Shown one piece after another: positions 36,522 to 62,356 of a stretch of DNA of 64,000 bases. How positions within the stretch are numbered: position 1 is the stretch's first letter; each line of letters opens with the position of its first letter. Below the pieces are notes generated by a model. The model was not told the DNA's origin. It did not search any database and saw only the letters and a list, made by a program, of their open reading frames with translations. The stretch comes from a virus: IMG/VR virus record IMGVR_UViG_3300032607_001425, positions 1 through 64,000 of that record. The stretch is one strand, 5' to 3'. The position numbers were made by a program, and so were the translations under genes.

Positions 36522-36542
36522 GATGTTTAAGTAAACTGTGCC

Positions 36543-39326: not shown

Positions 39327-39382
39327 ACTCTTTTTTAATTAAAACTTTTTAATAATATAACTAATATTTCTCTAATATACAA

Positions 39383-40018: not shown

Positions 40019-40112
40019 AATAAAAAAAGCTTAGGCTTTCAAGATTGGAGACTCTACTTGCCATAAGCTTTAGTTGATATTTTCTTTAAATATGTAGCTC
40101 CAATTCTACGTA
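40019..40112 (-). ncRNA. conserved structured leader RNA, copy A
   Basis: GUAG-AAUUGGAG-CUAC; AAAGCUUA-U-GGC-AAGUA-GAG-UCUCCAAU-CUU-GAAA-GCC-UAAGCUUU-U run-AUG. Confidence 0.8.
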
Positions 40113-40146
40113 TATAAATAGCAACTTTTTGTAGAAACCTACCAAA

Positions 40147-40449
40147 CTACTCTGCCTTCCTAATGGTAGCAAGGATTTCTCTGTCTGGTGTAATGAAGTA
40201 CTCTTGACCTTCAAAGTCAATACGAATGGTTCCTATCTTAGGAATCAATACAATGTCTCCTACTTTAGCTTCTACTCTAATAAATTGTCCAAATTCAGAC
40301 TGGCGTCCTGGACCTACGGAAACTACTTCACCCATTTCTGGTCTTTCTTTTCCCATGTCTGGAATGATAATACTTCCAAACCTTTCTTCTCCTGACTCTA
40401 CAGGCTTAACGATAACTCTATCGCTGTTTGCTGATAACTGTTGTGACAT
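40147..40449 (-). CDS. groES: co-chaperonin GroES
   Basis: DRVIVK, IIIPD..KE.P..GEVVSVGPG, VGD, EILA. Confidence 0.95.
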   Translation of the reverse strand: MSQQLSANSDRVIVKPVESGEERFGSIIIPDMGKERPEMGEVVSVGPGRQSEFGQFIRVEAKVGDIVLIPKIGTIRIDFEGQEYFITPDREILATIRKAE

Positions 40450-40513
40450 AAACTGATTTTAATTTAAAACTTATTTCTATTAATATAACAATAAATAGTA
40501 CGTGAGACAACTT

Positions 40514-42886
40514 CTAATGTCCTTCAGCAAAGTTATTTGCTAATTGTGGTGGTGCTTTTAATGTTACTCCTGGTAGTTGTGTTGTTAGTTCCATTAACTC
40601 TTTTACGTATGGCATAAACATTTCTGCTTGATCTTCTCTTACGTTTATAATTAACTGGTCATGAATTTGAGCTTGCACTCTTGCATCTACTCCTAACTCT
40701 TTTGCCTTTCTGTTAATTTGAATTGCTGCTCTGTTTACAACCGCTGCTGCTAGACTCTGTAATTGAAAATTTAAACAGTTATTGATTCCATTTCGATAAT
40801 CCATGTACATTTTGTTGACTGGATCTTTTCCATATCTACTCTCTAGATCTTTTCTAAATCTCCAATCCAATACCTGATCTCCAAACTTTTCAAAGATCTG
40901 TTTTACTTTTGGTAAATGTCTAATCCTTCCTACTTTATTTGTAACAAATCCATGAGTCTTTGCTTGGTTACGTGAAGCAATCATCCATTCTCTTAGTTGT
41001 GGGAATCCACTTAAGTATCCTTCGACCAATTTATCTCCTTCCTTAGCAGAGATTCCCAATGTCATTGCTAATGCATATCCTGACATTCCATATGCTACTC
41101 CTAAAGAGTATGACTTTGCTTGTTGTCTTTTGACTGGATCTAGTTTTTTTAGAAAGATTGGTGACTTGGTATCTGGTGATACTCCGTTTGGATACCTTAG
41201 TGTATTTTGATCTAACTTTTCTGTCTTGATTGCAATTGTAGAATAAAAGTCCCATCCATTGTTAAAAATATCCTGCAGTCCTTTATCTCCTGATACACTT
41301 GCAAAGCAGTGAGGTTCTAATGAAGTATAGTCATTATCAATCAACTTTCTACCTTCCCCAGCAATTAGAAATTCTCTTACTACATTTGTGTAATGTACAA
41401 GTAGTGCAGTTTCTTCTCCCTCCTCTTTTGGCTTTGGAAGTTGTTGAGCATCTGAACCGTAACGTCCTGATACTGTTCCATTTTGCTTGTAGTAAAAATA
41501 GTATCGTCCATCCTCTTGTCCGTCTAAGAATCTATCAATGTATGTTGATTTGATCTTAACTAATTTATTGTACGTTCTAAGATTATTGGCCCACTCATAC
41601 GTCTTAGCAAGCTCCTCTAACATATCCATATCAAATTGGTCTTGACCTTTCTTTGTTTGAGTAAGTGGTTTGATTCCCATATACTTAAATGCAATCTCAC
41701 CTAAGTGTTTCTTTGATTGGATGTTTAAGTACACTCCCTCATTCTCATCTTTCCACATTGACATAGAAATTCTAACAACTTCCATTTGATCTAATAAACT
41801 TAGATCTCCTGTTTGAAGGAATTGTTTTATGTTATCGTCGTCTAGGTTGTCGATGTCTTTTTTTGCTAAAGAATATTTCTTTGTTTTCTCACTTCTTGGT
41901 AATGGTAGTGAGTACATCATTGCTAAGTTCTGAGCCCAGTTACCTCTATGTGAAGGTGGATACGTTGCTAGTGCTGTATCTACTACCCATTCTTTTGCTT
42001 CTGGAATTGCTAGGATGCTGTCTATTACAATTTTCTTGTTTGCTTCTAAATCTCTTATGATATCCTCTTTGGTCTTTTCCAATAGTGGAAGATCCAATGC
42101 TACTCCTAACTCTTCCATTGGAACAGTAACTTCTCTGTAAAGAGGCATTACTTCTTCCTCAAAGAAAAAAGTTTCTAGGTTTTCTTGTCTTAAAACTTTT
42201 AAGAAATGATTACAAACTCTAAGAGTCAAATCGGTATCGGCTGCTGCATACTTGGATAAAATCTCCATATCTGCTTTGAAGATCTCGTAGTTGTCTTTTG
42301 TAATAGATCCTCCATTCTTTTTAATAGACTCCTTAAGCTCTACCTGTTCTTTGTTGGCTGCTTGTTGTACATCCAATCCAATCTCTTCTTGAATAGAAAT
42401 TGCCAGTGCCTTTAGTCCAAACACTCCCATACCTGCTCCTTCTTCTTGTACTGTATGAACAAGTAGTGCTGTATCAACCCAAAGATCTTCTAATAGAGAT
42501 ACTCCGTAGTAGTTTTTAGTATAACGGCAGTCAAAAGAAGCATTGTGCATTACCAGCTTCTTGCCCTTGAGCAGCGGGAGTAGCTTCTTAGTAATACCAT
42601 GTGCTCCTTTGCCGCCAATGATACATTCCTCTAATTGATTTGTTTCGTTATTCCATTTCTGAGTTGGGAGGTAAAATCCTATTCCTTCTTCACCTGATAC
42701 AGACCATCCTACAATAGATCCTTTTCTTACATTTAACCCATCTGTTTCTGTATCATAAGCAATAACCTCAGACTGATTGATATGTTCGATAAGAAGGTTG
42801 ACTGTGTCGATACTGTCAACGTGGTAGTATTTTTTTTCTATTTGCATAACCTTTTTATATTTGTAATAAGATACAAAAAGAGTCAC
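40514..42886 (-). CDS. polA: DNA polymerase family A with 3'-5' exonuclease
   Basis: DTETDGL, HNASFD, YAAAD; DYTSLE; RQQAKSYSLGVAYG; QIHDQ; likely start MQIEK (42847). Confidence 0.95.
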   Translation of the reverse strand: MTLFVSYYKYKKVMQIEKKYYHVDSIDTVNLLIEHINQSEVIAYDTETDGLNVRKGSIVGWSVSGEEGIGFYLPTQKWNNETNQLEECIIGGKGAHGITKKLLPLLKGKKLVMHNASFDCRYTKNYYGVSLLEDLWVDTALLVHTVQEEGAGMGVFGLKALAISIQEEIGLDVQQAANKEQVELKESIKKNGGSITKDNYEIFKADMEILSKYAAADTDLTLRVCNHFLKVLRQENLETFFFEEEVMPLYREVTVPMEELGVALDLPLLEKTKEDIIRDLEANKKIVIDSILAIPEAKEWVVDTALATYPPSHRGNWAQNLAMMYSLPLPRSEKTKKYSLAKKDIDNLDDDNIKQFLQTGDLSLLDQMEVVRISMSMWKDENEGVYLNIQSKKHLGEIAFKYMGIKPLTQTKKGQDQFDMDMLEELAKTYEWANNLRTYNKLVKIKSTYIDRFLDGQEDGRYYFYYKQNGTVSGRYGSDAQQLPKPKEEGEETALLVHYTNVVREFLIAGEGRKLIDNDYTSLEPHCFASVSGDKGLQDIFNNGWDFYSTIAIKTEKLDQNTLRYPNGVSPDTKSPIFLKKLDPVKRQQAKSYSLGVAYGMSGYALAMTLGISAKEGDKLVEGYLSGFPQLREWMIASRNQAKTHGFVTNKVGRIRHLPKVKQIFEKFGDQVLDWRFRKDLESRYGKDPVNKMYMDYRNGINNCLNFQLQSLAAAVVNRAAIQINRKAKELGVDARVQAQIHDQLIINVREDQAEMFMPYVKELMELTTQLPGVTLKAPPQLANNFAEGH

Positions 42887-42913
42887 ATTTCTGCAACTCT
42901 TTTTCTATTTATT

Positions 42914-43105
42914 TTACTCTGGATTGTTCGTTAAATCAGCATCGAGAATGCTGTTATGTAGATCAGACACTATACTATCTAGTGATTCTAACATTTTTAC
43001 ATTACTTGCTGTTTGCATAGCCTGTAATGCCACTGCTAACGGAACCATCTGCACTCCTTGTACATCCTGTGCACTTGCCTGTAGGTATTGTTCTAACTCT
43101 TCCAT
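42914..43105 (-). CDS. hypothetical protein
   Basis: 63 aa ORF in operon. Confidence 0.55.
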   Translation of the reverse strand: MEELEQYLQASAQDVQGVQMVPLAVALQAMQTASNVKMLESLDSIVSDLHNSILDADLTNNPE

Positions 43106-43890
43106 ACTGCTGTCTTATGTGCTTGGTTGAGTAAAAACTGTACATTACTCTCAATTAGTTCACGATTAACACTTGACATATCAAACGTCTCTAAGAAGTT
43201 ATGAGGTGTAGGGGTGCGTGTTGTATGATCTTTTGTAAAATCCTGTCCTAGAGACGCTGCAAACACTGGATATACTGAGTCAGTACTCCTCATCATTGGA
43301 TGATCATAGTATGCGAACTCTGTTGGATCTCCTTGTCCTAAACAGTGAATAGGCTTTACTAATAATCCTTTTTCCTTCAAGTAATCATATGCCATGTGAC
43401 GTGCTTCCTTAATTCCTTGATCGTCTGTATAATTTTCTAGGAATACATTTGGTACTGCTATTTTTGAAAATCCTATTATATCAATCCAACTTTGGTTTAT
43501 TGCCCAGTTGTATGCATTCAACCATGCTTCTTTAGTCTCTCCTTGTGGACAGAAAAAGATATCAATCGTTCCTAACAATCCTTCTTGCTCCATACGATCT
43601 CTAAACATTCTCGCATTAGCAATTGTATCCTCTTTATTAAATAAAACGTCTGGTGCTATTACTTCGTCAGGCATTAACTCTCTACAGATTTCAATTAAGA
43701 TATCTTCTGTTACCAATGCTCTTTCAGCTGCTGAGTTATCTAATGTAATGAACTTTCCTTGCTCTTTTTGATCTAGGATAAATGCTCTGTACTCTGGAAA
43801 CTGAACCCATAAGTGAGCCAATGCGAAGATGCGATCTCCCAACTTCATTGGCTCTAAGTCACTTACTGGTGATATTACGTATACGTCCAT
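43093..43890 (-). CDS. dpdA: TGT-fold DpdA-like 7-deazaguanine transglycosylase (DpdA3-like)
   Basis: LDNSA, IAPDV, PQG, IGFS, HCLG, RSTDS; inside the folE/queD/queE cluster. Confidence 0.7.
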   Translation of the reverse strand: MDVYVISPVSDLEPMKLGDRIFALAHLWVQFPEYRAFILDQKEQGKFITLDNSAAERALVTEDILIEICRELMPDEVIAPDVLFNKEDTIANARMFRDRMEQEGLLGTIDIFFCPQGETKEAWLNAYNWAINQSWIDIIGFSKIAVPNVFLENYTDDQGIKEARHMAYDYLKEKGLLVKPIHCLGQGDPTEFAYYDHPMMRSTDSVYPVFAASLGQDFTKDHTTRTPTPHNFLETFDMSSVNRELIESNVQFLLNQAHKTAVWKS

Positions 43891-43893
43891 TAT

Positions 43894-44649
43894 TTATTTT
43901 TTTAATTGTTTATATTCATATATTTGCTTTACCATACTAAAAAAATCCTGTTCTGGCAAATCCATTTTCATTTTATTAATGTGCTTATGAACCCACTGTA
44001 TATTTCCTAGTACATATCCCTGCTTTGAGTCTATCCTATCAAGAGAAGCTGTGCTAATCTCCTTTGCTCCAAGAGTTCCTTTACCCTTGTCTGAAAATTC
44101 TATCTGCATATTTGATATAGCACATCGTCTGTTTTGTTGTTCGTACAGCTCATACAAATACTGTGGAGTTACTAGCCATTGCTTCTTTCTTAATCTAGCA
44201 CCCTGTTCGTAACGTCTTATATCTCCCATTGGTATACATCCTACTTTTTCTACTAGATACTTTTGCAATCTACACTTTTCACACTGTGTTGATAAGCCTC
44301 TTGTTATGTGAGATGTTCTAATATGCTTTTCTGTTCCACAGTCGCATCTACAATTGTACTGACGTTCTAGTATATTTCCATTCTTCCTATATAGAAGTGT
44401 ATAGTCGTTCACGTCTATTACAGTCCACTTTCCAAAGCGTTTTCCAGTTACAATTCCTGCTTTTGGCTTTTTTGCATAGCAGGAGGTGCATTGCTTAGTA
44501 ACTCCTCTTAGTAGGTCTGTTTGTCGTTGTTGTTTAGTAAATCCACAATCACAGATACAATCAATCTTTTGAGCTGTGTGTGTTTGCGTAACTGTCCAAT
44601 GCCAGAAGCGATCTCCTGCTTGCACTTTAATAGTAGAAATATCAGCCAT
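43894..44649 (-). CDS. homing endonuclease (HNH/EndoVII-like)
   Basis: two GxRFGKWTV...CxCDCG repeats; QxxRCAIS, ASLDRIDSxxGYxxGNIQWV. Confidence 0.85.
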   Translation of the reverse strand: MADISTIKVQAGDRFWHWTVTQTHTAQKIDCICDCGFTKQQRQTDLLRGVTKQCTSCYAKKPKAGIVTGKRFGKWTVIDVNDYTLLYRKNGNILERQYNCRCDCGTEKHIRTSHITRGLSTQCEKCRLQKYLVEKVGCIPMGDIRRYEQGARLRKKQWLVTPQYLYELYEQQNRRCAISNMQIEFSDKGKGTLGAKEISTASLDRIDSKQGYVLGNIQWVHKHINKMKMDLPEQDFFSMVKQIYEYKQLKK

Positions 44650-44699
44650 AGTTATAGTATTTTATTATAAATATAGCCAATATTCCTAAAGCAAGATTT

Positions 44700-45350
44700 T
44701 TACAGTCTTGAGTTTTCAATCAAACTAAAAAACTCTTGGCGAGTGCCTATCTCATTGGTGTAGAAGTATTGGGATAGTTGAGATGTTTTCATTACACTTT
44801 CGTGATTCAAACCTCTACATCTTACACAATTATGCTGACTCTCAATAACTACTGCCACTCCTCTGTTACCAATACACAGCTTATCGACGTGGTCGTGGAT
44901 CTGCTTTGTAAGCGATTCCTGAACTTGTGGTCTGCGGCTGTAGAAGTCTACAATACGGTTCAACTTACTTAGTCCAATAACCTGATCTGTCTTTCCAGTT
45001 CCTGGGATGTATGCAACATGGGCCAATCCCAAAAATTGTAAATTATGGTGTCCACACATACTTATTACAGGAATTCGAGTCTGACAGATAAGTCCTGTGT
45101 ACCCTTCATCGTTAGGGAAGCTAGTAATAACTGGCTCGGCACTTACACTACCTGCAATAAGATCATTGATCCAAGCCTTTGCTACTCTCTTTGGAGTATT
45201 GGCTGAGTGTGGATCTTTTTCCCAATCAAATCCCAAAGCATTTAAAAACTGTCCATAGTAGATAGCTGCTTGGTCAATCATTTGGAGTTTCTCTTCTGCT
45301 GTACGTGGCATGTTTCCATTTGCCTTCTGTAACAATTCTAACTGTTTCAT
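44700..45350 (-). CDS. folE: GTP cyclohydrolase I
   Basis: TPKRVAK, SMCGHH, GLSKLNR, RPQVQE, HNCVxCRG, TRQEF. Confidence 0.92.
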
Positions 45351-45355
45351 ATAAC

Positions 45356-45829
45356 TTATATTTTGTTTTGTTCTTTTAATATACTAAATAATTCTGATAA
45401 TCCCAACTCATTATCTCTTTTTTCTGCTTCTTCGAATGTTAAAGTATCTTTTGGATCTTTACGAGCTTCAAACCTTCTTTTACGCTCTGCACTACTAACC
45501 TCCAACCATTTGTATTCTAACTCTACGTTCTTAAACTGCTCAGTAAGCCATCGTTCAATTGGTTGTAAAACTGTATACTGTCTGATTCCATCTATGATGT
45601 AACACTCTGGTGATCCTTCAGCGTAGGCCATGTAGTTCCAGATAGTCTTAACTATTTCATCTACAATTCTAGTATCAAGATGCTTGGAATTTTGTAACAC
45701 CTCTCTATCCTCAGATTGCATTAATTCCTTAACAAAATCTGAAACTATTAGCTTTACTGAATGCTCGTCGTTGTGGTTGTATGTGCTCTTGCCTGAGCAT
45801 ATCTCTCCAAATAAAAATACTACTTTCAT
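45356..45829 (-). CDS. P-loop nucleotide monophosphate kinase-like protein
   Basis: [19 protein letters not shown] lid. Confidence 0.7.
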
Positions 45830-46170
45830 TATTTCTCAACTATTCCAAAGAACTCTCCGTCTTCTGACACTGAGCACTTATCTAGGTTAAACTGTACTAG
45901 TAAATCCTCTGCAATATGCTCACAAGACATGCTTCCAAAGTTACAGCAGCTATATGTAGCATCGTACCACTTCTCTTGTATGTACGATCTAATTTTGTGC
46001 TTAAAATCAATAAACTCTGTTTCTCTATTTGAGTGACCTACTTCCAGCATGCATGCTACTTGGAATGTATGTCTGTGTGGATATTTTAGGTACTGTACAT
46101 TTGGTAGATTACAATCATCCCAACAGTGTAGTCCTTCTATATCAATTCTTACTTCTATACTTTTTTTCAT
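45829..46170 (-). CDS. QueD-like T-fold protein (DpdL-like)
   Basis: EGLHCW, YPHRHTF, RETEFI, MSCEHIA, VSEDGE; C-terminal 113 aa of ORF 45829..46893. Confidence 0.75.
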   Translation of the reverse strand: MKKSIEVRIDIEGLHCWDDCNLPNVQYLKYPHRHTFQVACMLEVGHSNRETEFIDFKHKIRSYIQEKWYDATYSCCNFGSMSCEHIAEDLLVQFNLDKCSVSEDGEFFGIVEK

Positions 46171-46776
46171 AATATTTCCTTTATACTTTCTTATTTTTAA
46201 ATTTTCTTCCCAACTAATAAATCGTAGGTTGGTTAAATCTGATACTTGTTCGGGAGTCCATCCTTCGTACCAGCAGTCTATTATTGGTCTTATGTGGTCA
46301 ATTTGATATGCTCCAGGTATTCCTGCCCTACCTCTTTTATCCTCAACATACCCTTCTATCTGCTCCTTTACTCGTTCAGTAAGTACCACTACTCTATTAC
46401 GAAACTGCTTATAAGTTTGTTGTGTATTGTGATACTTAAATTTACCATAATTTGGATTACGATCTCCTGCAGTACCTCCACTAAGCTGCTTAGTTTGTTT
46501 AATTTTCTCCCTAGTCACTTCATCCCTAGGCACTCCCCTATTCCATGCAGGCTTACCTTTACTTGGATTATTTTGAAGAAACCTTTGAGACTGTTTAAGT
46601 ACTGCTTCAGGATCTGACCATCGTTTATTATTACTTGCCGTTGTTGCACAGCTTTTGCATACCCGACCTTCTTTTTCAAACCGCTTAGCAGTGTCATCTG
46701 CTCTTTTTTGGCTATGTAATGATGTATTTTGAATTAAACTCCTACAGTCACTGCATATTCTACTTGATTTGTACAT
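46171..46776 (-). CDS. HNH homing endonuclease, in-frame with the QueD-like gene
   Basis: ATG 46776 after late promoter 46789; CxxC, PAWNRG, AYQIDHIRPI...NLRFISWEEN; no stop before MKKSIEV. Confidence 0.75.
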
Positions 46777-46831
46777 ACTATCTTTTAGTATAAATAGTAG
46801 GGAATTCACATTAACCGTTATATGGAACAGG

Positions 46832-47311
46832 TTACTTGTAGTCCTTTTCTCCCAACCATTGACCGTTGTAGGCCTCTGCATCGTTATTATCAAATACGAT
46901 AATTTGGGCCACTCTTGCGCCTTTTTCTATTGTAATTGGTCGAGTTGCAATAAGTACTGCTCCCATTTCATCCACATAGAAAGATGGATCATAAACTCCT
47001 GACGTAATGGTTGCTCCACATCTTAGAACACTTGATCTGTGTCTGATGAAAGCTGTCTTGTTACTTGGAAGTTTTACTCCTTGTTCGAATGTTAGGCTGT
47101 AGCTTCCTGGACTAAGATTATATACTATTTTACCTTCTTTGGTAAAGGTTGGTACTTCTAGGTACGGCAATACTACAGTCTTATCTGAGGATACTGTTCC
47201 TCCTACAATCTGCTTAACTTCTTTCAGAGTTAGATCATAACCTACTTGAGCTTTCGCCCCTTTACCATTTGCCTGTAGAAGCTGTTCTACTTGGTTTGCG
47301 TTGTTTAGCAT
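46832..47311 (-). CDS. dut: trimeric dUTPase / dCTP deaminase family
   Basis: GYDLT, RSSVLRCG, GVYDP, RVAQ, YNGQ. Confidence 0.75.
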   Translation of the reverse strand: MLNNANQVEQLLQANGKGAKAQVGYDLTLKEVKQIVGGTVSSDKTVVLPYLEVPTFTKEGKIVYNLSPGSYSLTFEQGVKLPSNKTAFIRHRSSVLRCGATITSGVYDPSFYVDEMGAVLIATRPITIEKGARVAQIIVFDNNDAEAYNGQWLGEKDYK

Positions 47312-47362
47312 AACTTTATTTTTTTACTAATATACAAAGAAGCCTCCGAAGAGGCAACTTTT

Positions 47363-47563
47363 TTATTCGATTATTTTAATAATTTTTGTCTGAGCTACTC
47401 GAATTACTTCGAAGTTGCTCTCTCCTTCAAACTCTTTATAGATCTTACTTTCTGCTTCTGTTGCTGAAACTGCATCTACTATATACTGCTCGTTTACTCT
47501 TTGTACTTTTCCCTTATCACTTTCGTGCTGTAACTGTACCGTTACTTGCCAATAATTGTTCAT
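47363..47563 (-). CDS. DUF4494-like protein
   Basis: EQYIVDAVSATEAE, IIKI. Confidence 0.7.
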   Translation of the reverse strand: MNNYWQVTVQLQHESDKGKVQRVNEQYIVDAVSATEAESKIYKEFEGESNFEVIRVAQTKIIKIIE

Positions 47564-47579
47564 GTTTATTTAATTTTAG

Positions 47580-48262: not shown

Positions 48263-48268
48263 TTTTAT

Positions 48269-49999: not shown

Positions 50000-50000
50000 C

Positions 50001-50540: not shown

Positions 50541-50541
50541 C

Positions 50542-51006: not shown

Positions 51007-51007
51007 T

Positions 51008-51730: not shown

Positions 51731-51765
51731 ACTTTTTTATAATAAATAGTACCGAAGTCTAAGAA

Positions 51766-51813
51766 CTAGAGTTTGGAGGTACTAAAGATCTTTGTTGATT
51801 GAAATTTATTCAT
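51766..51813 (-). pseudogene. queD: orphan queD 5' fragment (MNKFQSTKIF...)
   Basis: 15-aa ORF behind its own promoter, aligns with the QueD N-terminus MEKFRSKKRY. Confidence 0.55.
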
Positions 51814-51841
51814 TTATTTGTTTTTATATAATGTACGAACT

Positions 51842-52492
51842 TTATTTTAAGATTCCAAACTTTTTATTAGATTTTTTTATATTATCTTGAGCCCACAGTG
51901 GTTGAAAATTTGTGTAATGATTTAGTTTATAAATTTCTTCTAAGGTTTGTGCAGATGAAATTGGGATAATATGATCAAAATGCCACTCACCATGGTTACT
52001 TAATGTCATACCTTCCTGAAATTTGTGCTCGATGTATATTAAAAATTCCTGCATTGAGCATCCTAAAATCTCTTCAGTAAGTTTGCTCTTTTTATAAAGT
52101 CCTTTACAAGCTCTACCAAAAGAACCTCCTACTAATGCCCTTACGCCACATATGGTTTTAAATAAAGGATCTACTTCTCTTCTACGAGTTGCATATTCTT
52201 GAGTACGTTTTTTAACATGCTCTATATTATTTTTATAATATTCAGAATAGCTATTAGGATTTTTTTCTTCCCACTGTTTCATATAGTTAGGATTTTGCTC
52301 CATCCATTCCTTTAGGTAATTAGGGTTTTCTAAATACCATTTTTGAAGATAATCAGGATTTTTTTCTCTCCAACTAGTATTCCTTATTTTACAACATTCT
52401 TTACATTCCCCAAACCTACCATCTAGGTTTCTTACATTCTTATAGTAATCTTCTAATAACTTTTCTTGATTACAAGTTATACATTTTTTCAT
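51842..52492 (-). CDS. HNH homing endonuclease
   Basis: KKCxxC...CKEC; NP[DN]Y repeats; LGCS, WHFDHIIP, NHYTNFQPLW. Confidence 0.85.
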   Translation of the reverse strand: MKKCITCNQEKLLEDYYKNVRNLDGRFGECKECCKIRNTSWREKNPDYLQKWYLENPNYLKEWMEQNPNYMKQWEEKNPNSYSEYYKNNIEHVKKRTQEYATRRREVDPLFKTICGVRALVGGSFGRACKGLYKKSKLTEEILGCSMQEFLIYIEHKFQEGMTLSNHGEWHFDHIIPISSAQTLEEIYKLNHYTNFQPLWAQDNIKKSNKKFGILK

Positions 52493-52588
52493 AATAAAAA
52501 AAAGCTTAGGCTTTCGAGGTCGGACGCTCTACTTGCCATAAGCTTTAAATTGATGTTTTCGATATAAATATAGGTCCGACGCTATGCA
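52493..52588 (-). ncRNA. conserved structured leader RNA, copy B
   Basis: AUAG-CGUCGGAC-CUAU; AAAGCUUA-U-GGC-AAGUA-GAG-CGUCCGAC-CUC-GAAA-GCC-UAAGCUUU. Confidence 0.8.
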
Positions 52589-52627
52589 TATAAATATCGA
52601 CTTTTTATGAAAAGTACGGTTTATTTT

Positions 52628-52969: not shown

Positions 52970-52970
52970 A

Positions 52971-54182: not shown

Positions 54183-54184
54183 AA

Positions 54185-54529: not shown

Positions 54530-54607
54530 AACCTTTATTTTTATTTGTTTCTAATACTTAAATATACGAAAAAAGACCTGCGTAAGCAAGCCTTTTATTA
54601 TTTATTT

Positions 54608-55411
54608 TTACATTTCTTCGATAGGAGTGTACCCTACTATTGCTTGTGGAGGAATGTTTTGATAGGTATAAGCTCCTTGTCCTTTAAAATTTGGATCTTC
54701 GTAGAAAGCTCCTTTAAGTAGGCTAGTATCAATAGTTAGCTCTACTCCTTGATTCTTTCCAAAATGTTGCTTTAAACCTCTAAATAAAAAGTCAGAATCC
54801 TTCTTAGAAAGTGAAACATATATTCTTTCAGGATGTGCTGATCTCTTTTCTAATGTTTTTGGTGTGAGTCCTATTTGTTTAATTTTATCTACAAATCTTG
54901 TTGTTGTAGTATGGTAAACATACTTTGGAATCTCTACTTCTGGATCATATTTAGCTTCGAAAAAGAATTTAAGGTAAGGAGGCTGTTCATTTAAAACTAA
55001 CTCCCTAAACTTAGAAGAGCTATACTTCATTGAATATTGTTGATTATTATCGTTAAGAGAAGGAAATAGGATCGATTTAGGTTTTTGTTGATTGGGGTTG
55101 TTAAGTTTATAATATACTACGCTAGGAAAATATCCTAAGTTATTTGCTAGTTGAATTACTTTTGATATTTTAGGATCATATAAAGTTCCTGTACTGTACT
55201 TACTACTTTGTTCTGTAGCATAAGTAGGTTTGAATCCTAGTACAATAGTGTTACCATCATTTAAGAAATCAAGTTCAGGGTAATTTTCAACCTCTCTACC
55301 TAGAACTTCCATGGCCTGCTGTATAGGCACTGTCCTAGTCAGTCCTTCCTGTAAGTCTCCTGTAAACGGATCAAAAACAATCCCCCTTATTAAATCCTTT
55401 AATTTAATCAT
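54608..55411 (-). CDS. late protein with C-terminal ADP-ribosyltransferase/Tpt1-like domain
   Basis: YHTT...IxxxGLxP...IYVS...LxID...YxxxxIPPxAI; late-type promoter at 55421. Confidence 0.6.
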   Translation of the reverse strand: MIKLKDLIRGIVFDPFTGDLQEGLTRTVPIQQAMEVLGREVENYPELDFLNDGNTIVLGFKPTYATEQSSKYSTGTLYDPKISKVIQLANNLGYFPSVVYYKLNNPNQQKPKSILFPSLNDNNQQYSMKYSSSKFRELVLNEQPPYLKFFFEAKYDPEVEIPKYVYHTTTTRFVDKIKQIGLTPKTLEKRSAHPERIYVSLSKKDSDFLFRGLKQHFGKNQGVELTIDTSLLKGAFYEDPNFKGQGAYTYQNIPPQAIVGYTPIEEM

Positions 55412-55428
55412 ACTTTTTATAATAAATA

Positions 55429-56151
55429 TTATATAAATTCTATTGTATTTGTTTCCTTATCCCAATCAAACGTCATTGGCTTTTGAGTGTACTCATAACT
55501 CTCATCCAATACAGATGCATTGAAGAAGTGAGTACCATCTTTAAACTCATAACCATATCCTGAATGGATATGACCGCAAACGTGAATTTTAGGCCTTATT
55601 TGTTCTATTCTTTGTGCCAATAACTCACATCCTAAACCATCCCACTCTCTTCCTTTTACTGTATCTAAAGTTCCAAATGCTGGACCATGTGTAACTAGAA
55701 TGTCTGTGTTGTCAGGAATTGCTTCCCACTTACCTGCTAACTGTATTCCATTTTTAGGTAAATTGAATGCCCAAGAATAGAATTCAGGTTGCCAAGGGGA
55801 TCCATAAATACGAATGTTGTTCTCAGGCATATCTCCATTTGGACCATCACCATACAATGCTATTTGTTCATCTTGTAGATAGTCAATTAATGGAAAATCT
55901 TTTAGATATCCTTTCACATCCTCAGGATGATTCTCAAACATTCTATCATGATTACCTGCTATGAATATTTTATCTTCATATTGCTTTAGGGATTGGAACC
56001 AATTACAGAAGCTCCAGATATCATTTCTATTGTATCCTGAGTTCATTATGTCTCCTGCATGGATGAGAATATCTCCTCCAGGTAAATCCTCCATTGGGAT
56101 TAGTCCATGTCTTGTATGTGTGTCCGATAATACTGTTATACGTGTTTTCAT
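55429..56151 (-). CDS. metallophosphoesterase (MPPED-like)
   Basis: SDTH, HAGD, GNHD, THGP, GHIH. Confidence 0.9.
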   Translation of the reverse strand: MKTRITVLSDTHTRHGLIPMEDLPGGDILIHAGDIMNSGYNRNDIWSFCNWFQSLKQYEDKIFIAGNHDRMFENHPEDVKGYLKDFPLIDYLQDEQIALYGDGPNGDMPENNIRIYGSPWQPEFYSWAFNLPKNGIQLAGKWEAIPDNTDILVTHGPAFGTLDTVKGREWDGLGCELLAQRIEQIRPKIHVCGHIHSGYGYEFKDGTHFFNASVLDESYEYTQKPMTFDWDKETNTIEFI

Positions 56152-56249
56152 TTTATTCTCCTCCTCCTTTTTTAATTAAAAAATACCAAAACCAAATTAC
56201 TTTGGATCTTATTAGTTCGTATGCTATCCAAATTAGAATGTACTTCATT

Positions 56250-56492
56250 TTATCTGTTTAAAGATTTTAAATAAATTGCTTGTTGTCTGATTCCAAATTC
56301 TCTTGTAAGAATATTTACATGCATTTGATTTTTCATAAACATCTCCAGTCCAACTATCATTTCAGTAGCATCAAACTTTTTTGATCTACCTTGAATTTTT
56401 AAATCTTCATCAGCAAGTTTTAGCATTAAATATCCTAATTCGGTTTCACTTTCACATTGATTAACTTCTTGCCATTTTTGTAATTCTGTCAT
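56250..56492 (-). CDS. hypothetical protein
   Basis: 80 aa ORF with own promoter. Confidence 0.65.
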   Translation of the reverse strand: MTELQKWQEVNQCESETELGYLMLKLADEDLKIQGRSKKFDATEMIVGLEMFMKNQMHVNILTREFGIRQQAIYLKSLNR

Positions 56493-56527
56493 AACTTTAC
56501 CTTTTTATATAACTAAATATACGAAAT

Positions 56528-56890
56528 TTATTTCGATAAAACAAATAATTCATAACAAGAATTTTCAGTTGAAAATTTTATGTAATCGTCTCTGTGCTCT
56601 ACAATTTCAGTTACTATAGTAGTTTGCCAAATAAAAAACTCATTGAATGGAGACATAATTAAACTTGTATTAACTGCAATGTTTGGTGATTCTCCTTTAT
56701 ACCTTCCTTGCTCATTAAACTCTAACCACTTTATGTCTTTAGAGGTTTTTGTTAATTGGTCTCTTTCTCGAACTAGTTTATATTTATGCTCTTCTGGATT
56801 CCCAAAAACCATTTCAAACATTTGATCTAAATGTAAAGTATTACCATCTGCTTGAGATAGTAGTACTTTTGGCTGTGCTCCTGCTATCAT
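56528..56890 (-). CDS. conserved phage hypothetical protein
   Basis: WQTT.VTEI...FxTxNSxY. Confidence 0.7.
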   Translation of the reverse strand: MIAGAQPKVLLSQADGNTLHLDQMFEMVFGNPEEHKYKLVRERDQLTKTSKDIKWLEFNEQGRYKGESPNIAVNTSLIMSPFNEFFIWQTTIVTEIVEHRDDYIKFSTENSCYELFVLSK

Positions 56891-57099
56891 AATTCTTTTT
56901 CTTTTTTGTAGATTGCTAATAGTTCTTCGTATGTCTTAAGTGCTTTATCATTACGCCATTCACACCAATAAGCAAATCCAATAGCAAATTCATCAGCTAC
57001 TTTTTCGTGTTCAATAGATACAAGTTCTACCATTCCTTCATAATGTTCATCTTCTTCATCATTGATAAACCATTGTTGAAATTTTTCTTTTAGTGTCAT
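56887..57099 (-). CDS. hypothetical protein
   Basis: 70 aa, FAIGFAxW motif. Confidence 0.65.
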   Translation of the reverse strand: MTLKEKFQQWFINDEEDEHYEGMVELVSIEHEKVADEFAIGFAYWCEWRNDKALKTYEELLAIYKKEKEL

Positions 57100-57102
57100 A
57101 AC

Positions 57103-57510
57103 TTATACTGTATGTTGAATTTGTACTCTTACACAATTTTGAGGTAAACGATGTATGTGTCTGTAGTTGTTAATGTACCCCATCATGTTACCACTTCCAA
57201 CTGCATTTGCAGAATGTACTACAACATCAACAACACAACCTCCATCAAGCCATTGATTGACCAACCATTTAGTACAATCCATTCCAGTTTTCTCTTTAAT
57301 ATTGTCATAATTCAATTCATAATTGTAGTAAACATTTTTATGCCATTCAGCCATTGCTGTATCTCCTAAATCGTGATCTAGAGAAATTACATCTATGTTT
57401 TCTAATCCAATGTAAGTAACTGTATCGACAAATTGCTCGTAGTTTCTTACTACAGTCCAAGATGTATCAACTGGTGTTCTTACATCATCTAGGTATATTT
57501 TCTTTTTCAT
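57103..57510 (-). CDS. cyclic-phosphate-processing receiver-domain protein
   Basis: YLDDVRxP, VRNY, SLDHDLG, GxD, HSANxxG. Confidence 0.8.
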   Translation of the reverse strand: MKKKIYLDDVRTPVDTSWTVVRNYEQFVDTVTYIGLENIDVISLDHDLGDTAMAEWHKNVYYNYELNYDNIKEKTGMDCTKWLVNQWLDGGCVVDVVVHSANAVGSGNMMGYINNYRHIHRLPQNCVRVQIQHTV

Positions 57511-57520
57511 TTTATTTGTT

Positions 57521-58144
57521 TTAATCCCACCACCCTTGAATCTGACTTTCCATTATTTTAAATAATAGTTTGTGTGCTCTTTGGTGGTTAATGTGAGCAA
57601 TATTCATTGCAATTCTCTGTTTTCTATCAGTACTAACGTTATCGTGATCTCCTAAAGAAAAGACACCTTCACCATTCATAACTCTTTTATAAATTAAAGG
57701 GTATTTTTTGAAGTAGTCATCAAACTTTTCCCATACTAATTCACTATTCATTAGAGACGAATCTGGTCTGTCTTCGCAAGGTGTAAACCATACCCTGTCT
57801 TTATGGTAATCCATATACTCCATTACATACTCCTCTTCTTGCACTTTTTGCATTAACTTAACACATATTCTCATATTACGAGCATCTTGCTGGGCACGAG
57901 TATGTCTATCCTTTGCTCCAATATAATCGGCTTGAGCTTTTAATTTATGTTTTAGTATTTCGTAGATGTAGTGCGAATCCCAATTTCTATCTTTCCAAAT
58001 GATTGGAAACCAATACCAAACGTTTTTTACTCCTTGTTTAAAGTATTTGTGATAATACTTTCCATCATGATTCCACCAAAGCTGTACCTTTCTAAGTATG
58101 TTTGGTCTAGGTCTGTTTTCTAATTCTTCGAAAAAATCTTCCAT
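57521..58144 (-). CDS. conserved phage hypothetical protein
   Basis: WxxIIWKDRxWD...WWD. Confidence 0.75.
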   Translation of the reverse strand: MEDFFEELENRPRPNILRKVQLWWNHDGKYYHKYFKQGVKNVWYWFPIIWKDRNWDSHYIYEILKHKLKAQADYIGAKDRHTRAQQDARNMRICVKLMQKVQEEEYVMEYMDYHKDRVWFTPCEDRPDSSLMNSELVWEKFDDYFKKYPLIYKRVMNGEGVFSLGDHDNVSTDRKQRIAMNIAHINHQRAHKLLFKIMESQIQGWWD

Positions 58145-58334
58145 TGTTATCTGTTTTTATAATGTTATGCTTTTTGAATGCGTGAAGTCTTTACACAATA
58201 CAACATATCATTTCCTATATGTTCGTACTGTAAACCGTTGATCTCTATTGTTTCTCCGTGTTTCTTAGACGCTCTAATACTTTTTAGTATTAGAGATATG
58301 TCTTCACAATAAACTCTCTTTCCTCTCATAACTT

Positions 58335-58523
58335 TTATTTTGTAAGTTTAATTGGGAAGGTTGAAATCATTATTATAAGTATTGCTTCTACAATAGATAT
58401 ACTACCACGTTGATCAATGGTCCACTCAGTTGCGTCGAGGTTACCTATTGCGAACGCCATTAGTAAATACCCTAATAAAAATCCGATTGCTGCTAGTAAG
58501 CTTCTTGCTATTATTTCTTTCAT
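58335..58523 (-). CDS. small membrane protein
   Basis: two hydrophobic segments. Confidence 0.6.
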   Translation of the reverse strand: MKEIIARSLLAAIGFLLGYLLMAFAIGNLDATEWTIDQRGSISIVEAILIIMISTFPIKLTK

Positions 58524-58537
58524 AACCTTTATTTATT

Positions 58538-58684
58538 TTAAATTAGTATTTTCTTTTTAAAAAGGTAAAGTAGGCTGTTGGTCTTATCTATAACAACGGA
58601 TACTAATTCCCAACCATGTTGACCAGCATTATTAAGTTGTTCTCTTGTTACATCCCATTGCTTTAGGTATTCCCATTTTTCCAT
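58538..58684 (-). CDS. DUF4177-like small protein
   Basis: not in ORF track; MEKWEY...LNNAGQHGWELVSV...YLFKK. Confidence 0.6.
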   Translation of the reverse strand: MEKWEYLKQWDVTREQLNNAGQHGWELVSVVIDKTNSLLYLFKKKILI

Positions 58685-58714
58685 AACTTTTATTTGTTTT
58701 AAATTTCTAATAAT

Positions 58715-58752
58715 TAAATATACGAAAAAAAGCTTGCCGAAGCAAGCCTTTT
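58715..58752 (-). promoter_or_regulatory. middle-type promoter with terminator embedded in its spacer
   Basis: AAAAGGCTTG-CTTCGG-CAAGCTTTTTTTCG-TATATTTA; similar at ~8031, 34416, 42866, 47327, 54558, 63025. Confidence 0.65.
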
Positions 58753-58757
58753 GCCAA

Positions 58758-59456
58758 TTATTTTTTAGAATATTTCCAGATAAATCCTCCTGCAGTTTTT
58801 ACCTTACCTTTTATACAGGTCGAGATGTTCCCTTTATCTATTCCTAGATCTTCACTGGCTTCTCTTCCTGAAGACCATTCTCTGATGAATCTTCCATCTC
58901 TATTGTATTGATTGATAGCTTTTTTGTTTTTCTCTGCTATTAGCTTATAATCTGTATTTTCTACCTTTATTATAAAGTTGGTATTTTTAATCCTTGCTGC
59001 TTCATCTCTACTAGCTGCTGATTTATTTCTGTTTCCTTTTCCTTCCTCGGTCATATTATAGACCCTTAGAGTCTCTGCTATTTGGGACTTTACCTCAACC
59101 CCCTTGGAAGTACTGTAGAGAAGCTTCTTAGCTGCTTTTATTTTATCCACTGTATTTTGGGAATGTACAGTCTTAGCTTCCTGCGTACTCTGTAACTTAC
59201 AGTTTAATCCATTTTCAGATAGAACATCGTAATATTCTTGCCAGTGTCTCTCACGAATGTTTAGTTCCTCTACCTTACACTGTTCTACTATTTCAAAGAT
59301 ATGCTCAGGGAAACCGTATTTTACTAGTGAGGCATAAAGTCTTATCTGATTCTTGCATCCTTTTCTAGCGTAAATTTTCTGCCTTGTTTCCAAGTCAGTA
59401 CTCTGCCCAATATATACTCTTCCCGTTGGACTTATAATTTTATAAATTCCTATCAT
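58758..59456 (-). CDS. GIY-YIG homing endonuclease with NUMOD1 tail
   Basis: GIYKIISPTGRVYIGQS; KTAGGFIWKY; paralog of 39383..40018. Confidence 0.9.
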   Translation of the reverse strand: MIGIYKIISPTGRVYIGQSTDLETRQKIYARKGCKNQIRLYASLVKYGFPEHIFEIVEQCKVEELNIRERHWQEYYDVLSENGLNCKLQSTQEAKTVHSQNTVDKIKAAKKLLYSTSKGVEVKSQIAETLRVYNMTEEGKGNRNKSAASRDEAARIKNTNFIIKVENTDYKLIAEKNKKAINQYNRDGRFIREWSSGREASEDLGIDKGNISTCIKGKVKTAGGFIWKYSKK

Positions 59457-59557
59457 ATTAAATAAAAAAAGGAGAAATTAAAAATATAGTACCTGACCGT
59501 ACTAAATCTTTAAAATCTCCATATGCTCTTGTAGGTCGGTCAGTACCCTTTATTTAA
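59457..59557 (-). ncRNA. kissing-loop leader RNA, variant D
   Basis: GGGU-ACUGACCG-ACCU; GGAGA...UAGUAC-GGUCAG-GUACUA...UCUCC-U7. Confidence 0.6.
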
Positions 59558-59595
59558 TATAAATAGCAACTTTTTATAAAAACCGCTAGTTTTTA

Positions 59596-60741
59596 CTAGT
59601 GGCTGTCGCCATAATCGTGCTTCTCCGATGCAATTAAATATTCAGGGTTTATTACTTTTGCTACCTTTTTACGATCTCCAGATATGTGCTTTATGACTAT
59701 TCCCTCGTGAGGAGTTTTTGTCCTTTCAATGAAGTTGTTGAATACAAAACTGTCTTGGATTTCTTGGTTCCATTTACCTGCATATAGAACTTCTACATGA
59801 GGTAATCCTAATAGCTCATCTATTTCATATTGAGCAGAATCTGTTGGAAAGTATTCATTATCCATTTTTAAATCAAATCCTGTAAATCTAATATCCTCTA
59901 ACCCATAGGTGTAGTTCTTTTGAATTCCTGCTCCATAAATTTCTCCATAAAGAATTAGTCCATCACCAACATAGTCACTTCCATAGATGTAGCATAGGTT
60001 CCAAAGCCTTGCTTTGATTTGATACTTTCCAGCAATTGTTCTCCAAACATCAGTTGAGTAGAATCCTTGAGAATCACTCCCTTTTTCTACATTATGAGAT
60101 CCGTAGACATACTCGTAATCAATCCACTCATCAGTAATTCTTAGGAATTTTTTTACTTTATCCCAAAATGATAATTTAGATTTTTTAACTATTCCGTATC
60201 GTGCGTTAGTCCCATGAATCTTTCTAGTGATTTGAACTTCATCTTCTTGCGTAAACATTCCGTCAACGTTTTTAAGGTTTGGGAATCTGTAGTAGATGTG
60301 GAAGTTTTGATTATCTTGGTACTTAATCTTTCTACCTGAGGCAAGTTGAATTTGTTTAACTGGTGGTTCGTATTTGGTAATGTTTAGGTGAGACATACAA
60401 TCTCTCCCCTCAATTACTAAATCATAGTCACCCATTGATACTTTACCTTTAAGATAGCTTATTGGAATGATTAAGCATTCAGAATAAACTCCTCTTAATT
60501 TTACAGTCCTTACTCTATTGCCTTTTCTTAGGTAAGAAGTAACTCCCATCTGTTCAGATAATTTTTCTGGTATAACTGCATCGGTAGTTGCAATAACTGC
60601 TAACCCATCTACTTGAAATTCTCCTTTTTTAGTAATAGCATTCCATCCACCTGCAATCACAAGTTCGATGTTATCTGCTCCTTCAATGGCTCTTACTTCG
60701 TTTATTTTTGCTATAAAACAGCAGCTGTTATTATTTTCCAT
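59596..60741 (-). CDS. RNA ligase (Rnl2/DRB0094 family)
   Basis: IEGADNI, LRGVYSE, KIHGTN, YGEIYG, FD, EGIV, KVINxxYL. Confidence 0.9.
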   Translation of the reverse strand: MENNNSCCFIAKINEVRAIEGADNIELVIAGGWNAITKKGEFQVDGLAVIATTDAVIPEKLSEQMGVTSYLRKGNRVRTVKLRGVYSECLIIPISYLKGKVSMGDYDLVIEGRDCMSHLNITKYEPPVKQIQLASGRKIKYQDNQNFHIYYRFPNLKNVDGMFTQEDEVQITRKIHGTNARYGIVKKSKLSFWDKVKKFLRITDEWIDYEYVYGSHNVEKGSDSQGFYSTDVWRTIAGKYQIKARLWNLCYIYGSDYVGDGLILYGEIYGAGIQKNYTYGLEDIRFTGFDLKMDNEYFPTDSAQYEIDELLGLPHVEVLYAGKWNQEIQDSFVFNNFIERTKTPHEGIVIKHISGDRKKVAKVINPEYLIASEKHDYGDSH

Positions 60742-60985
60742 TTTTATGTTCTTGTATTAAATTTTTTATTCCTTCTTTTTTCTCATCATTGAAAACATCT
60801 TCGAGTTTAATTTCTTTTTCTGCAAAATACATAAACTCTAAACATTTGTAAACACTCATTCCACTTTTACAACAATCTTCAATATAGTCTTTATACTTTT
60901 CAAAATCCTCATCAGTGTACTTGTAATTATCTTCTGTACGTCTGTCTTTTAGTCTTTGTAAATAATTTTCAAATGTTTCTTTCAT
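60731..60985 (-). CDS. hypothetical protein
   Basis: 84 aa ORF in operon. Confidence 0.65.
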   Translation of the reverse strand: MKETFENYLQRLKDRRTEDNYKYTDEDFEKYKDYIEDCCKSGMSVYKCLEFMYFAEKEIKLEDVFNDEKKEGIKNLIQEHKNGK

Positions 60986-61383
60986 AACAATATTCCGAAT
61001 CTTTTTTTCATAGTTTCTAATTTATCTTGTGGTACTCCATGCTCGTTTACTCCTCCGTGTCTATTTTCTACAATTAACGAGTAGACTCTATATCCGTATT
61101 TTTCTGCTAGATCATAGTATGGTTGCATTTCCCATTCTTGAGTGAATGTGTTTGACACTGTTATTCTTTCGTATTGTGCTTTAATTAAAGATGAAACTTC
61201 TTCTTGACACCAAGCATGTGCTTCTTTTAATTGGGAAGGATCAAACTTATAGTCTCCATTCTTATCTATAAAGTACATATCAGCTTCTCTATAATAATGT
61301 TCTTTGTAATTTGTCATTAATGACTTTGCTAATGTTGATTTACCTGATCCAGGTAATCCTCGTAAAAGAAACAATTCCTTCAT
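60982..61383 (-). CDS. P-loop kinase (polynucleotide kinase-like, AAA_33)
   Basis: RGLPGSGKST, EAD, VSNTF, HGVP. Confidence 0.85.
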   Translation of the reverse strand: MKELFLLRGLPGSGKSTLAKSLMTNYKEHYYREADMYFIDKNGDYKFDPSQLKEAHAWCQEEVSSLIKAQYERITVSNTFTQEWEMQPYYDLAEKYGYRVYSLIVENRHGGVNEHGVPQDKLETMKKRFGILL

Positions 61384-61583
61384 AACCTTATTTGTTTTTA
61401 AGTTCTTTTTCTTTTAAAGTATTCATATATTTTAATTCAATTGCTACTCTATCTATTGCAAAATAAATAAGTAAACCTACAGTTAGTATTGTAAAAATTA
61501 ATAGTACCATCATAATCTTATTTGTTTTTAAATTTATACTTAAATATACGAATAATATCTCAGTCTACCAAATTATTTTTAAT

Positions 61584-62225
61584 TTATTTTACATATTTCC
61601 AAATAAATCCTCCTGCCGTCTTATTACGACCAGTCAGACAATTAGATATACTATTCCTAGATATTCCTAATGATCTCTCAATATCTCCCAGTGAAGGCCA
61701 AACTTGTACAACCACGTTGTCAAGCGTTAGTTGTTTAACTGAAACCATTCGCTTTATTGATCGCTTTTTAATGCTCTCTGGGTTTTGCATGTGATCTGTG
61801 GAAGGTTTAAATCCAATTGCTTTTCTTGTGGCTACAATTTTTGCAGCATGCTCTTTTGTTTTGGGGACATTTTTAAATTGAATAGATACGGCTAAGGCGT
61901 GCCTCTCTTTTACCTCCTGGTACATCCTTGCTGTTACTTTATGCTTAGGTTTGCTTATATCTCCCATTGTTACAAAAAACCACAGTGCCTGTGATAATTT
62001 TAGTTCGGTTGGGAAAATCCTACATAAAAGTAAATGTGCTACAAAATGTTCTCGAGCTGTAAGTAGTACAACATTTGGATGAGTTTTCCACTAACGTTCC
62101 AAACCTTCTCCTCCCATACATTTTGGAATAATGTGATGAGCTTCAAAATAAAACTCTCTACTCTTAACTCTGTTTTCACTTTGAGCTCTCTCAATTAGTT
62201 GATTGTAAATTCTTTGGTAATTCAT
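61584..62225 (-). pseudogene. HNH-NUMOD1 homing endonuclease interrupted by an in-frame TAG
   Basis: MNYQRIY...EAHHIIPKCMGGEGLER*WKTHPNVVLLTAREHFVAH...KTAGGFIWKY; TAG at 62091-62093. Confidence 0.8.
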
Positions 62226-62320
62226 AATAAAAAAAGCTATGGCTTTCGAGGTAGGAGACTCTACTTGCCTATAGCTTTAGTTGATATTTTATTTAGTATT
62301 TGTAGCTCCTACACTACATA
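62226..62320 (-). ncRNA. conserved structured leader RNA, copy C
   Basis: UGUAG-UGUAGGAG-CUACA; AAAGCUAU-A-GGC-AAGUA-GAG-UCUCCUAC-CUC-GAAA-GCC-AUAGCUUU. Confidence 0.8.
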
Positions 62321-62356
62321 TATAAATAGCAACTTTTTATGGAAAACACCGTTTAT

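Follow-up and report, generated by a model that had tools for sequence, protein, structure and literature searches.

The window analysed in this study comprises 64,000 nucleotides (nt) from a virus, positions 1 to 64,000 of IMG/VR record IMGVR_UViG_3300032607_001425, and encodes a DNA polymerase approximately 82% identical to that of Flavobacterium phage vB_FspM_immuto (immuto). An initial annotation, made from the sequence alone, had described three elements of about 95 nt, each in front of an endonuclease gene, and all three were found where it had placed them. They lie on the minus strand, as does every gene in this region of the window, and coordinates below refer to that strand unless otherwise indicated. 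The core pattern of the element occurs three times in the window, compared to 0.00 expected occurrences, and a fourth copy (loop GUCGUAG) is located outside the window, at 82.8 kb of the 102-kb viral record from which the window is taken. Judging from sequence comparison, the element is a structured leader RNA of a family new to Rfam, and it probably belongs to a known kind of cis-regulator that restrains a mobile nuclease gene.

Three leaders and the genes behind them

From 5' to 3', each copy consists of a promoter-like box (TATTTATA), a first hairpin (H1), a linker, a second hairpin (H2), a run of seven to eight U residues, AUU and the AUG start codon. H1 has 4 bp and an 8-nt loop, with the stem GUAG/CUAC, or AUAG/CUAU in copy 2, while the linker is A/U-rich and 22-23 nt long. 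H2 is a 46-nt hairpin with an 8-bp base, a bulged U, GGC/GCC, an AAGUA/GAAA internal loop, GAG/CUY and an 8-nt loop. The two loops are complementary over 7 bp in each copy exactly as had been claimed, with the pairs AUUGGAG:CUCCAAU, GUCGGAC:GUCCGAC and GUAGGAG:CUCCUAC, and this loop-loop helix is referred to below as the kiss.

In copy 1, the promoter-like box AAAGTTGCTATTTATA (40113-40128, with the TATTTATA part at 40113-40120) is followed by H1 (40094-40109, GUAG/CUAC, loop AAUUGGAG), a single-stranded A/U-rich linker of 22 nt (40072-40093), and H2 (40026-40071), which carries the loop-E-type AAGUA/GAAA and the loop UCUCCAAU that kisses the H1 loop over 7 bp. The remaining U tract and AUU (40019-40025) stand directly 5' of the AUG at 40018. 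Copy 2 extends over 52493-52604, with the promoter box at 52588-52604, H1 at 52570-52585 (AUAG/CUAU, loop CGUCGGAC), H2 at 52501-52546 (loop CGUCCGAC) and the ending U8 AUU. Copy 3 occupies 62226-62336, with the promoter box at 62320-62336, H1 at 62302-62317 (loop UGUAGGAG), H2 at 62233-62278 (loop UCUCCUAC) and the ending U7 AUU.

The gene behind copy 1 (39383-40018, 211 amino acids) encodes a GIY-YIG homing endonuclease according to both Pfam and PHROGs. For the gene behind copy 2 (51842-52492, 216 amino acids), the earlier assignment as HNH is supported by PHROGs (endonuclease VII/HNH, 2.7e-22) but not by Pfam, which gave no hit; it is described here as a zinc-ribbon/HNH-type endonuclease gene. 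The HNH-NUMOD1 domain assignment of the gene behind copy 3 (61584-62225) also stands, with the correction that the reading frame is interrupted by an in-frame stop (62091-62093) after codon 44. The leader of copy 3 is intact although its gene is broken, and intact relatives of this protein have 221-254 amino acids; the gene is probably a decaying homing endonuclease. A frameshifted relative on another contig (L240) likewise has an intact leader.

Other roles for the leader sequence were also considered. A leader peptide was rejected, as the ATG found within H2 of copy 1 is missing from copy 3, and ARAGORN identified no tRNA-like fold in the leaders. A comparison with Rfam 15, which covers mepA/guanidine-IV, ribozymes, Flavo-1 and further Bacteroidota motifs, matched no family to the leader, in line with the initial annotation, which did not recognise it as a known RNA family. 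At E≤10, copy 1 retrieved only noise (19 bits or less), all four genome copies together gave no match at E≤1, and the window searched at the gathering threshold yielded only a tRNA. That tRNA, at 3618-3688, scores 49 bits (gathering threshold 29), while ARAGORN reports no tRNA anywhere in the window. Searches of the literature for such an RNA, or for descriptions of nuclease-gene control, returned no description of this leader.

Covariation and distribution of the leader family

Homologues were obtained from pattern scans of viral and metagenome contigs and from searches with a covariance model built from 25 sequences, and together comprise 102 distinct leaders (family A). The alignment of these sequences (A4) was fitted to the nested helices only and not to the kiss, and counts of promoter, U-run and start-codon geometry were taken over 104 members. 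Counting the loop-loop helix as part of the proposed structure, 97.5% of the cells of the alignment are paired, and 23 of the 25 pairs change on both sides. None of 500 shuffled controls reached the observed values, and controls in which partners were slid paired in 35-44% of cells. The stem covariation first seen among three copies therefore extends to all five helices over the whole set of homologues. All four pairs of H1 change on both sides, H1 being backed by at least five different stem sequences, and the base stem of H2 (8-11 bp) covaries as well.

The loop-loop helix gave the same result as the stems: all seven kissing pairs change on both sides, and two of these positions use all four Watson-Crick pair types. 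Approximately 30 different kissing-loop sequences occur in family A. The 7-nt complement of one loop was found in the other in 96% of cases, compared to 7% when partners were permuted between members. Wobble pairs are also present; the pair formed by columns 71 and 99 is U.G in 63 sequences and C-G in 38, and five G.U pairs occur within the kiss. These G.U and U.G wobbles show the gene-strand RNA to be the selected molecule. Single-copy thermodynamic z-scores are weak (-0.6 to -2.3), a point taken up again below.

The loop-E-type internal loop was likewise borne out, with AGUA opposite GAA(A) nearly invariant between covarying helices, a pattern that a loop-E or sarcin-ricin (bulged-G) motif would be expected to give; this invariance is in part a matter of ascertainment, since the scan patterns required the AGUA/GAA core, and the model-based matches widen its range to UAGUA, GAGUA and GAUUA variants. 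The AGUA/GAA core and the sequences of the GUAG/CUAC and GAG/CUC helices are conserved beyond the needs of pairing. By comparison, the linker, which is 14-25 nt long (mode 22) and 52% A across the family, is poorly conserved in sequence, and its length does not scale with that of H2 (r = -0.31). An alternative pairing of the 3' strand of H1 (CUAC) with GUAG of the loop-E strand was rejected because it is lost where the H1 stem differs, while H1 itself is compensated. The picture of a folded cis-RNA with a covarying kiss and a loop-E-type internal loop is thus upheld by 102 homologues. Two suggestions made for its function fare less well. Hardly any unpaired nucleotides are conserved outside the loop-E core, and neither the sequence nor the length of the linker is constant, which speaks against a riboswitch; the scarcity of conserved unpaired nucleotides beyond loop-E, together with the lack of any scoring Rfam ribozyme, speaks against a ribozyme.

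Several candidates at the edges of the family should be distinguished from its members. Seven strict-core matches in Acidobacteria and proteobacterial genome contigs have no kissing complement and represent either chance or another RNA. No match was obtained by blastn of the leader against cultured phage records, or by the covariance model against the immuto genome. Eight viral loci of sample 3300045988, on the large viral contigs L002, L005, L008, L012, L015, L022, L026 and L030, share a loop-E core with a 10-nt loop and nothing else with the leader, and were not counted as members. Their hairpin (GAGCAAGUAGAG...CUUGAAAGCUC, with the 10-nt palindromic loop AUAGCGCUGU) stands in a conserved context unrelated to the leader and may be a different structured RNA. 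A divergent member on contig L330 (1244-1350, plus strand) has 6-nt loops (AGGCAG/CUGCCU) and stands before a gene for a protein other than a nuclease (MSGWIKL...). AGGCAG recurs 6-11 nt before the AUG of this member, where it could compete for loop 2, which hints at a switch in this single case.

Approximately 90% of the genes downstream of family members are homing endonucleases of several unrelated families. Among 95 downstream open reading frames of at least 100 amino acids, the Pfam domains recorded were HNH_3 (30), NUMOD4 (27), NUMOD3 (15), HNH (15), GIY-YIG (12) and NUMOD1 (12). The idea that the leader combines with unrelated nuclease domains also held, in that the downstream proteins form 12 BLAST clusters, including GIY-YIG, HNH, HNH_3 with NUMOD4, and zinc-ribbon HNH proteins. 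In a few members the downstream protein is HTH_36, DUF6291 or unassigned, and the leader is therefore typical of nuclease genes rather than restricted to them. The loop sequence does not track the type of nuclease; GUCGAGG, for example, occurs with seven kinds of protein. In addition, the 2-kb flanks show no excess of the loop 7-mers or their complements over swapped loops, so that a role as guide RNA was rejected.

These distributions also bear on the proposal that the leader inhibits its own nuclease in the manner of a type III toxin-antitoxin RNA. The order of promoter, pseudoknotted RNA, terminator and nuclease gene does resemble toxIN. However, Tandem Repeats Finder detected no tandem array in the leaders, which occur as one copy per gene, and no ToxN/AbiQ/CptN-type endoribonuclease was found downstream, where GIY-YIG, HNH, HNH_3/NUMOD4, HTH_36 and other proteins are encoded instead. 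Instead of ToxN-type RNases, the downstream genes encode DNA homing endonucleases that belong to many families (at least 12 unrelated clusters, with HTH_36 and DUF6291 proteins among the few non-nucleases), and the RNA does not follow the protein, one loop sequence being shared by many nuclease types.

Promoter, start region and movement as one block

The box upstream of each window copy reads AAAGTYGMTATTTATAT. It had been labelled a late promoter, a designation that is not supported, as TATTTATA differs from the T4 late promoter (TATAAATA) and also precedes non-nuclease genes, namely those at 36483, 28152 and 32383. In these genes the start codon follows within a few nucleotides, leaving almost no leader. 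TATTTATA is thus a general promoter-like motif of the phage. A -7 box is found at a fixed distance 5' of H1 in nearly all members, either as the canonical Bacteroidota TAnnTTTG, located, counting from the first G of H1, exactly at -12 to -5, or as the phage variant CTATTTATATAT, with 3-4 nt between the end of the box and H1. Since mapped start sites of Flavobacterium psychrophilum have the sigma-A box at -12 to -5 (PMC9723704), the matching spacing places the probable RNA start at the base of H1. An extension of H1 into the promoter, as T4-style logic would have it, was rejected because the family does not conserve base pairs between the box region and the 3' flank of H1.

At 36483-36530, one such box comes immediately after a clean intrinsic terminator (GAGGC...GCCUC followed by U8), and a start codon lies about 13 nt beyond it, showing the ordinary arrangement of terminator, promoter and gene in this phage. 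At 1784-2176, approximately 380 nt of non-coding sequence follow the same box (2161-2172), with a clear terminator near 2000-2030 and a hairpin loop AGUGACAU whose complement AUGUCACU lies about 100 nt downstream; this region is possibly another structured RNA with long-range pairing.

At the 3' end of the leader, a run of at least five U residues directly follows H2 in 96 of the 104 members. Measured from the end of the loop-E core, the distance to the start codon is 14-23 nt, with a single exception of 28 nt, and no orphan copies lacking a downstream start codon were found among the members. A profile of positions -1 to -11, made for the 46 of 104 leaders with a sufficiently long tail, shows 75-98% U, compared to 50-66% A over the same positions in 74 other phage genes. 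Initiation in F. johnsoniae is raised by A at positions -3, -6, -12 and -13 and lowered by local structure (PMC6847099).

A second type of leader, family B, has the same topology but a sequence unrelated to family A and no loop-E motif. In the window it occupies 59457-59573, in front of a GIY-YIG gene (58758-59456), behind the same promoter box and with a z-score of -3.96. Its H1 loop, ACUGACCG, is complemented by an apical GGUCAG in an H2 with the base GGAGA...UCUCC, after which comes U7. In general, family B leaders have an H1 of 4-5 bp with a 7-9-nt loop, a linker of 12-14 nt, a long GGAGA/UCUCC H2 whose apical loop complements that of H1, a run of six to seven U residues, AUUUAAU and the AUG. 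Four copies are present in this genome (the others at 66.1, 85.7 and 88.6 kb of the record, L340-L342), with four different matching loop pairs, and 39 distinct relatives were identified in viral contigs, often the same contigs that carry family A, with at least 12 loop pairs by inspection. Both families therefore share a layout of promoter, 5' hairpin kissing the tip of a terminator-like hairpin, U tract and start codon. The existence of an analogous family that lacks loop-E indicates that this motif is not essential to the design.

Comparison with relatives indicates how the leaders are gained and lost. The promoter box, leader, nuclease gene and a 56-nt tail of copy 1 form a mobile block (39328-40146) inserted between GroES and GroEL. 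All three sites are empty of leader and nuclease in immuto, where 2 nt separate GroES from GroEL. In contigs of two independent environmental studies, 39327 is connected to 40175, and nothing but a divergent GroES end lies between these positions. Because both immuto and these contigs are without the whole block, promoter box, leader and nuclease are gained or lost as a unit of about 820 bp. At copy 2, similarity to immuto begins only at 52623. Following the nuclease genes, at 39327-39382, 51731-51841 and 61500-61583, there are weak -7-box-like motifs (TATATTAG, CTATTTATTAT and TATATTTA), which are possibly exit promoters restoring downstream expression; chance may account for them in such AT-rich DNA.

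Possible modes of action

The reading that we favour, and to which we give about an even chance, is that the leader, travelling with its gene, serves as a hard-wired attenuator and a throttle on translation. Transcription would start at or within approximately 3 nt of the first base of H1, which would fold first and whose loop would capture the H2 loop co-transcriptionally by seven Watson-Crick pairs. The completed H2, with its G-C-containing base, and the following U6-8 would constitute a built-in intrinsic terminator ending most transcripts. On mRNAs that are read through, H2 would form a structured block 7-10 nt before the AUG that limits ribosome access, in a U-rich, A-poor context likely to be poor for the Shine-Dalgarno-less initiation of Bacteroidota. 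The kissing helix would serve as a tertiary clamp setting H2 closure, and hence the level of read-through or initiation. The expected outcome is a small amount of nuclease, independent of the phage operon in which the cassette landed.

Counting in favour of the attenuator are the covarying fold, the fixed -7 box, the spacing of U run and AUG, the U-rich positions -1 to -11, the nearly leaderless non-nuclease genes, the shared layout of family B, movement as one block and the precedent of T-even phages, whose nuclease genes are restrained by terminators and occluding hairpins and use promoters of their own (PMC2988022). As in the T-even homing endonuclease genes, which may be free-standing or intron-borne (I-TevI/II/III, segB, mobE, segF and seg43(25); PMC2988022), cis-RNA structures and intrinsic terminators at the 5' end would keep nuclease expression low, the cassette bears its own promoter, and, as in seg43(25), a hairpin is found immediately upstream of the start. 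However, the T-even elements are single, gene-specific hairpins that sequester the Shine-Dalgarno sequence, with a late promoter inside the hairpin that relieves the block because its own transcripts cannot form the hairpin, whereas in the leader described here the promoter lies upstream of the whole fold, there is no Shine-Dalgarno sequence, and one kissing architecture is common to many unrelated genes.

Several observations weigh against the attenuator. In addition to the low z-scores of single copies, eight of the 104 members lack a run of five or more U residues, and H2, with its interrupted stem, is not called by the simple sigma-70 and terminator scan, which was uninformative for a system of the Bacteroidota type. 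A terminator before the nuclease would also reduce expression of the downstream GroEL unless a promoter follows, and only weak promoter-like boxes are present between the two genes. Finally, a plain terminator or occluding hairpin needs no H1, 7-bp kiss or loop-E motif, and the architecture hints at something beyond such a device.

One such possibility concerns the sign of the kissing effect. In the guanidine-IV riboswitch, a kissing loop hinders completion of the terminator stem (PMC11611296). That RNA (the mepA motif; PMC11611296) resembles the present leader in having two leader hairpins with kissing loops, a short linker and a second hairpin leading into a poly-U terminator, a role suggested here by the U run directly after H2 in most members. 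The kiss may thus either clamp H2 shut or strain the short linker so that the base of H2 is kept open. Under the latter logic, without a ligand, the kiss would compete with closure of the H2 base and represent an anti-terminator or anti-occlusion state permitting nuclease expression, with a balance that could be kinetic or depend on Mg2+, temperature or a competitor. By rough geometry, a coaxial stack of H1, kiss and H2 would span about 30 bp, or roughly 84-92 Å, and among the linkers, with 14-25 nt for family A and 12-14 nt for family B, the shorter ones are near their extension limit. The strict upkeep of kissing pairs in two families further suggests that the nuclease needs the kiss. On the other hand, because the H2 base pairs covary too, both the kissed and the closed-H2 states appear to be under selection, and bending of the RNA may allow the two to coexist. 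There is no obvious input signal, and the leaders match no Rfam family; the approximately 30 loops vary freely instead of conserving a ligand pocket, and a full 7-bp Watson-Crick kiss should form without ligand. The genes controlled also differ, with nucleases rather than transporters downstream, in phages of Bacteroidota. We regard this logic as unlikely.

It is also conceivable, but rather unlikely, that the main product is a stable terminated small RNA of about 95 nt, tied by the kiss and having its own function through protein binding at loop-E or in trans, with the nuclease as a read-through passenger. A promoter directly before and a terminator-like hairpin directly after a compact fold would suit such an RNA, as would the helix sequences and AGUA/GAA core kept beyond pairing needs and the persistence of intact leaders before decayed nuclease genes. 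Against this, all 104 members have a start codon within 14-28 nt and none is an orphan, family B keeps the layout without loop-E, and the absence of loop 7-mer enrichment in flanking DNA leaves no target evident.

The diversity of the loops raises a further possibility. Kissing loops of about 7 nt that are fully paired, variable and define specificity are known from the antisense systems that control plasmid replication (ColE1 RNA I/II, R1 CopA/CopT and pT181 attenuation), and in pT181 the formation of a terminator in front of the gene depends on kissing. The plasmid interactions are bimolecular, between sense and antisense RNAs, whereas both loops of the leader are in one sense RNA. The loop variety could represent neutral drift with compensation where sequence identity is irrelevant, or diversifying selection for copy-specific addresses. 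In the latter case, leader RNAs would compete with the intramolecular kiss of nascent transcripts from the same cassette only. Comparison of family A loops within genomes does not inform this question, as 13 pairs in seven genomes all differ, but chance gives the same at P ~0.35 and no conclusion is drawn. The address model would explain the roughly 30 loops on a near-invariant scaffold, the convergence of two families on one topology and the differing loops within a genome; we consider it improbable.

It is quite improbable that the leader is a signal for RNA processing by RNase III or by RNase E, or else a self-cleaving ribozyme of a new kind, either of which would detach or activate the nuclease mRNA. 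A long hairpin with an asymmetric internal loop and a stacked helix of about 14 bp recalls the RNase III sites of phage T7, and the 22-nt A/U linker resembles an RNase E site. That RNase E processes segB and segG of T4 (PMC2988022) offers a precedent. The linker is poorly conserved, however, few conserved unpaired nucleotides are available for a catalytic core, and no ribozyme or other Rfam family scores at E=10 for copy 1 or E=1 for the four copies. Largely refuted, and very improbable, are the toxin-antitoxin-like inhibitor considered above and an element acting at the DNA level (a cruciform, or a homing or recombination site), for although conserved repeats of about 130 bp could mediate nuclease-gene exchange as proposed for PeSL (PMC4122927), the G.U wobbles and compensatory changes point to RNA and not to DNA. 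The PeSL cassettes of T4-like phages (PMC2839356, PMC4122927) are also short conserved modules that are repeated within a genome, flank variable accessory genes and could mediate exchange, but in these a stem-loop lies upstream of a sigma-70-type promoter, followed by a Shine-Dalgarno sequence and start codon, with no evidence of long-range pairing or covariation.

Very few phage cis-RNAs have comparative support of this kind, in which dozens of independent compensatory changes prove a long-range tertiary helix of 7 bp within about 95 nt. The leader would be a new family of Rfam grade, and probably there are two analogous ones. It would also provide a first view of the regulation of mobile nuclease genes in phages of Bacteroidota, hosts without Shine-Dalgarno-based initiation, and it shows the head that regulates a homing cassette to be an exchangeable module in its own right. 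A reprogrammable kissing pair before a terminator is, in addition, a candidate for orthogonal synthetic attenuators. If the loops do act as addresses, every selfish nuclease gene would possess a copy-number-sensing feedback of its own, much like the incompatibility loops of plasmids, and escape from repression by co-resident cassettes would drive the loops apart, which would constitute a new form of element-specific self-control.

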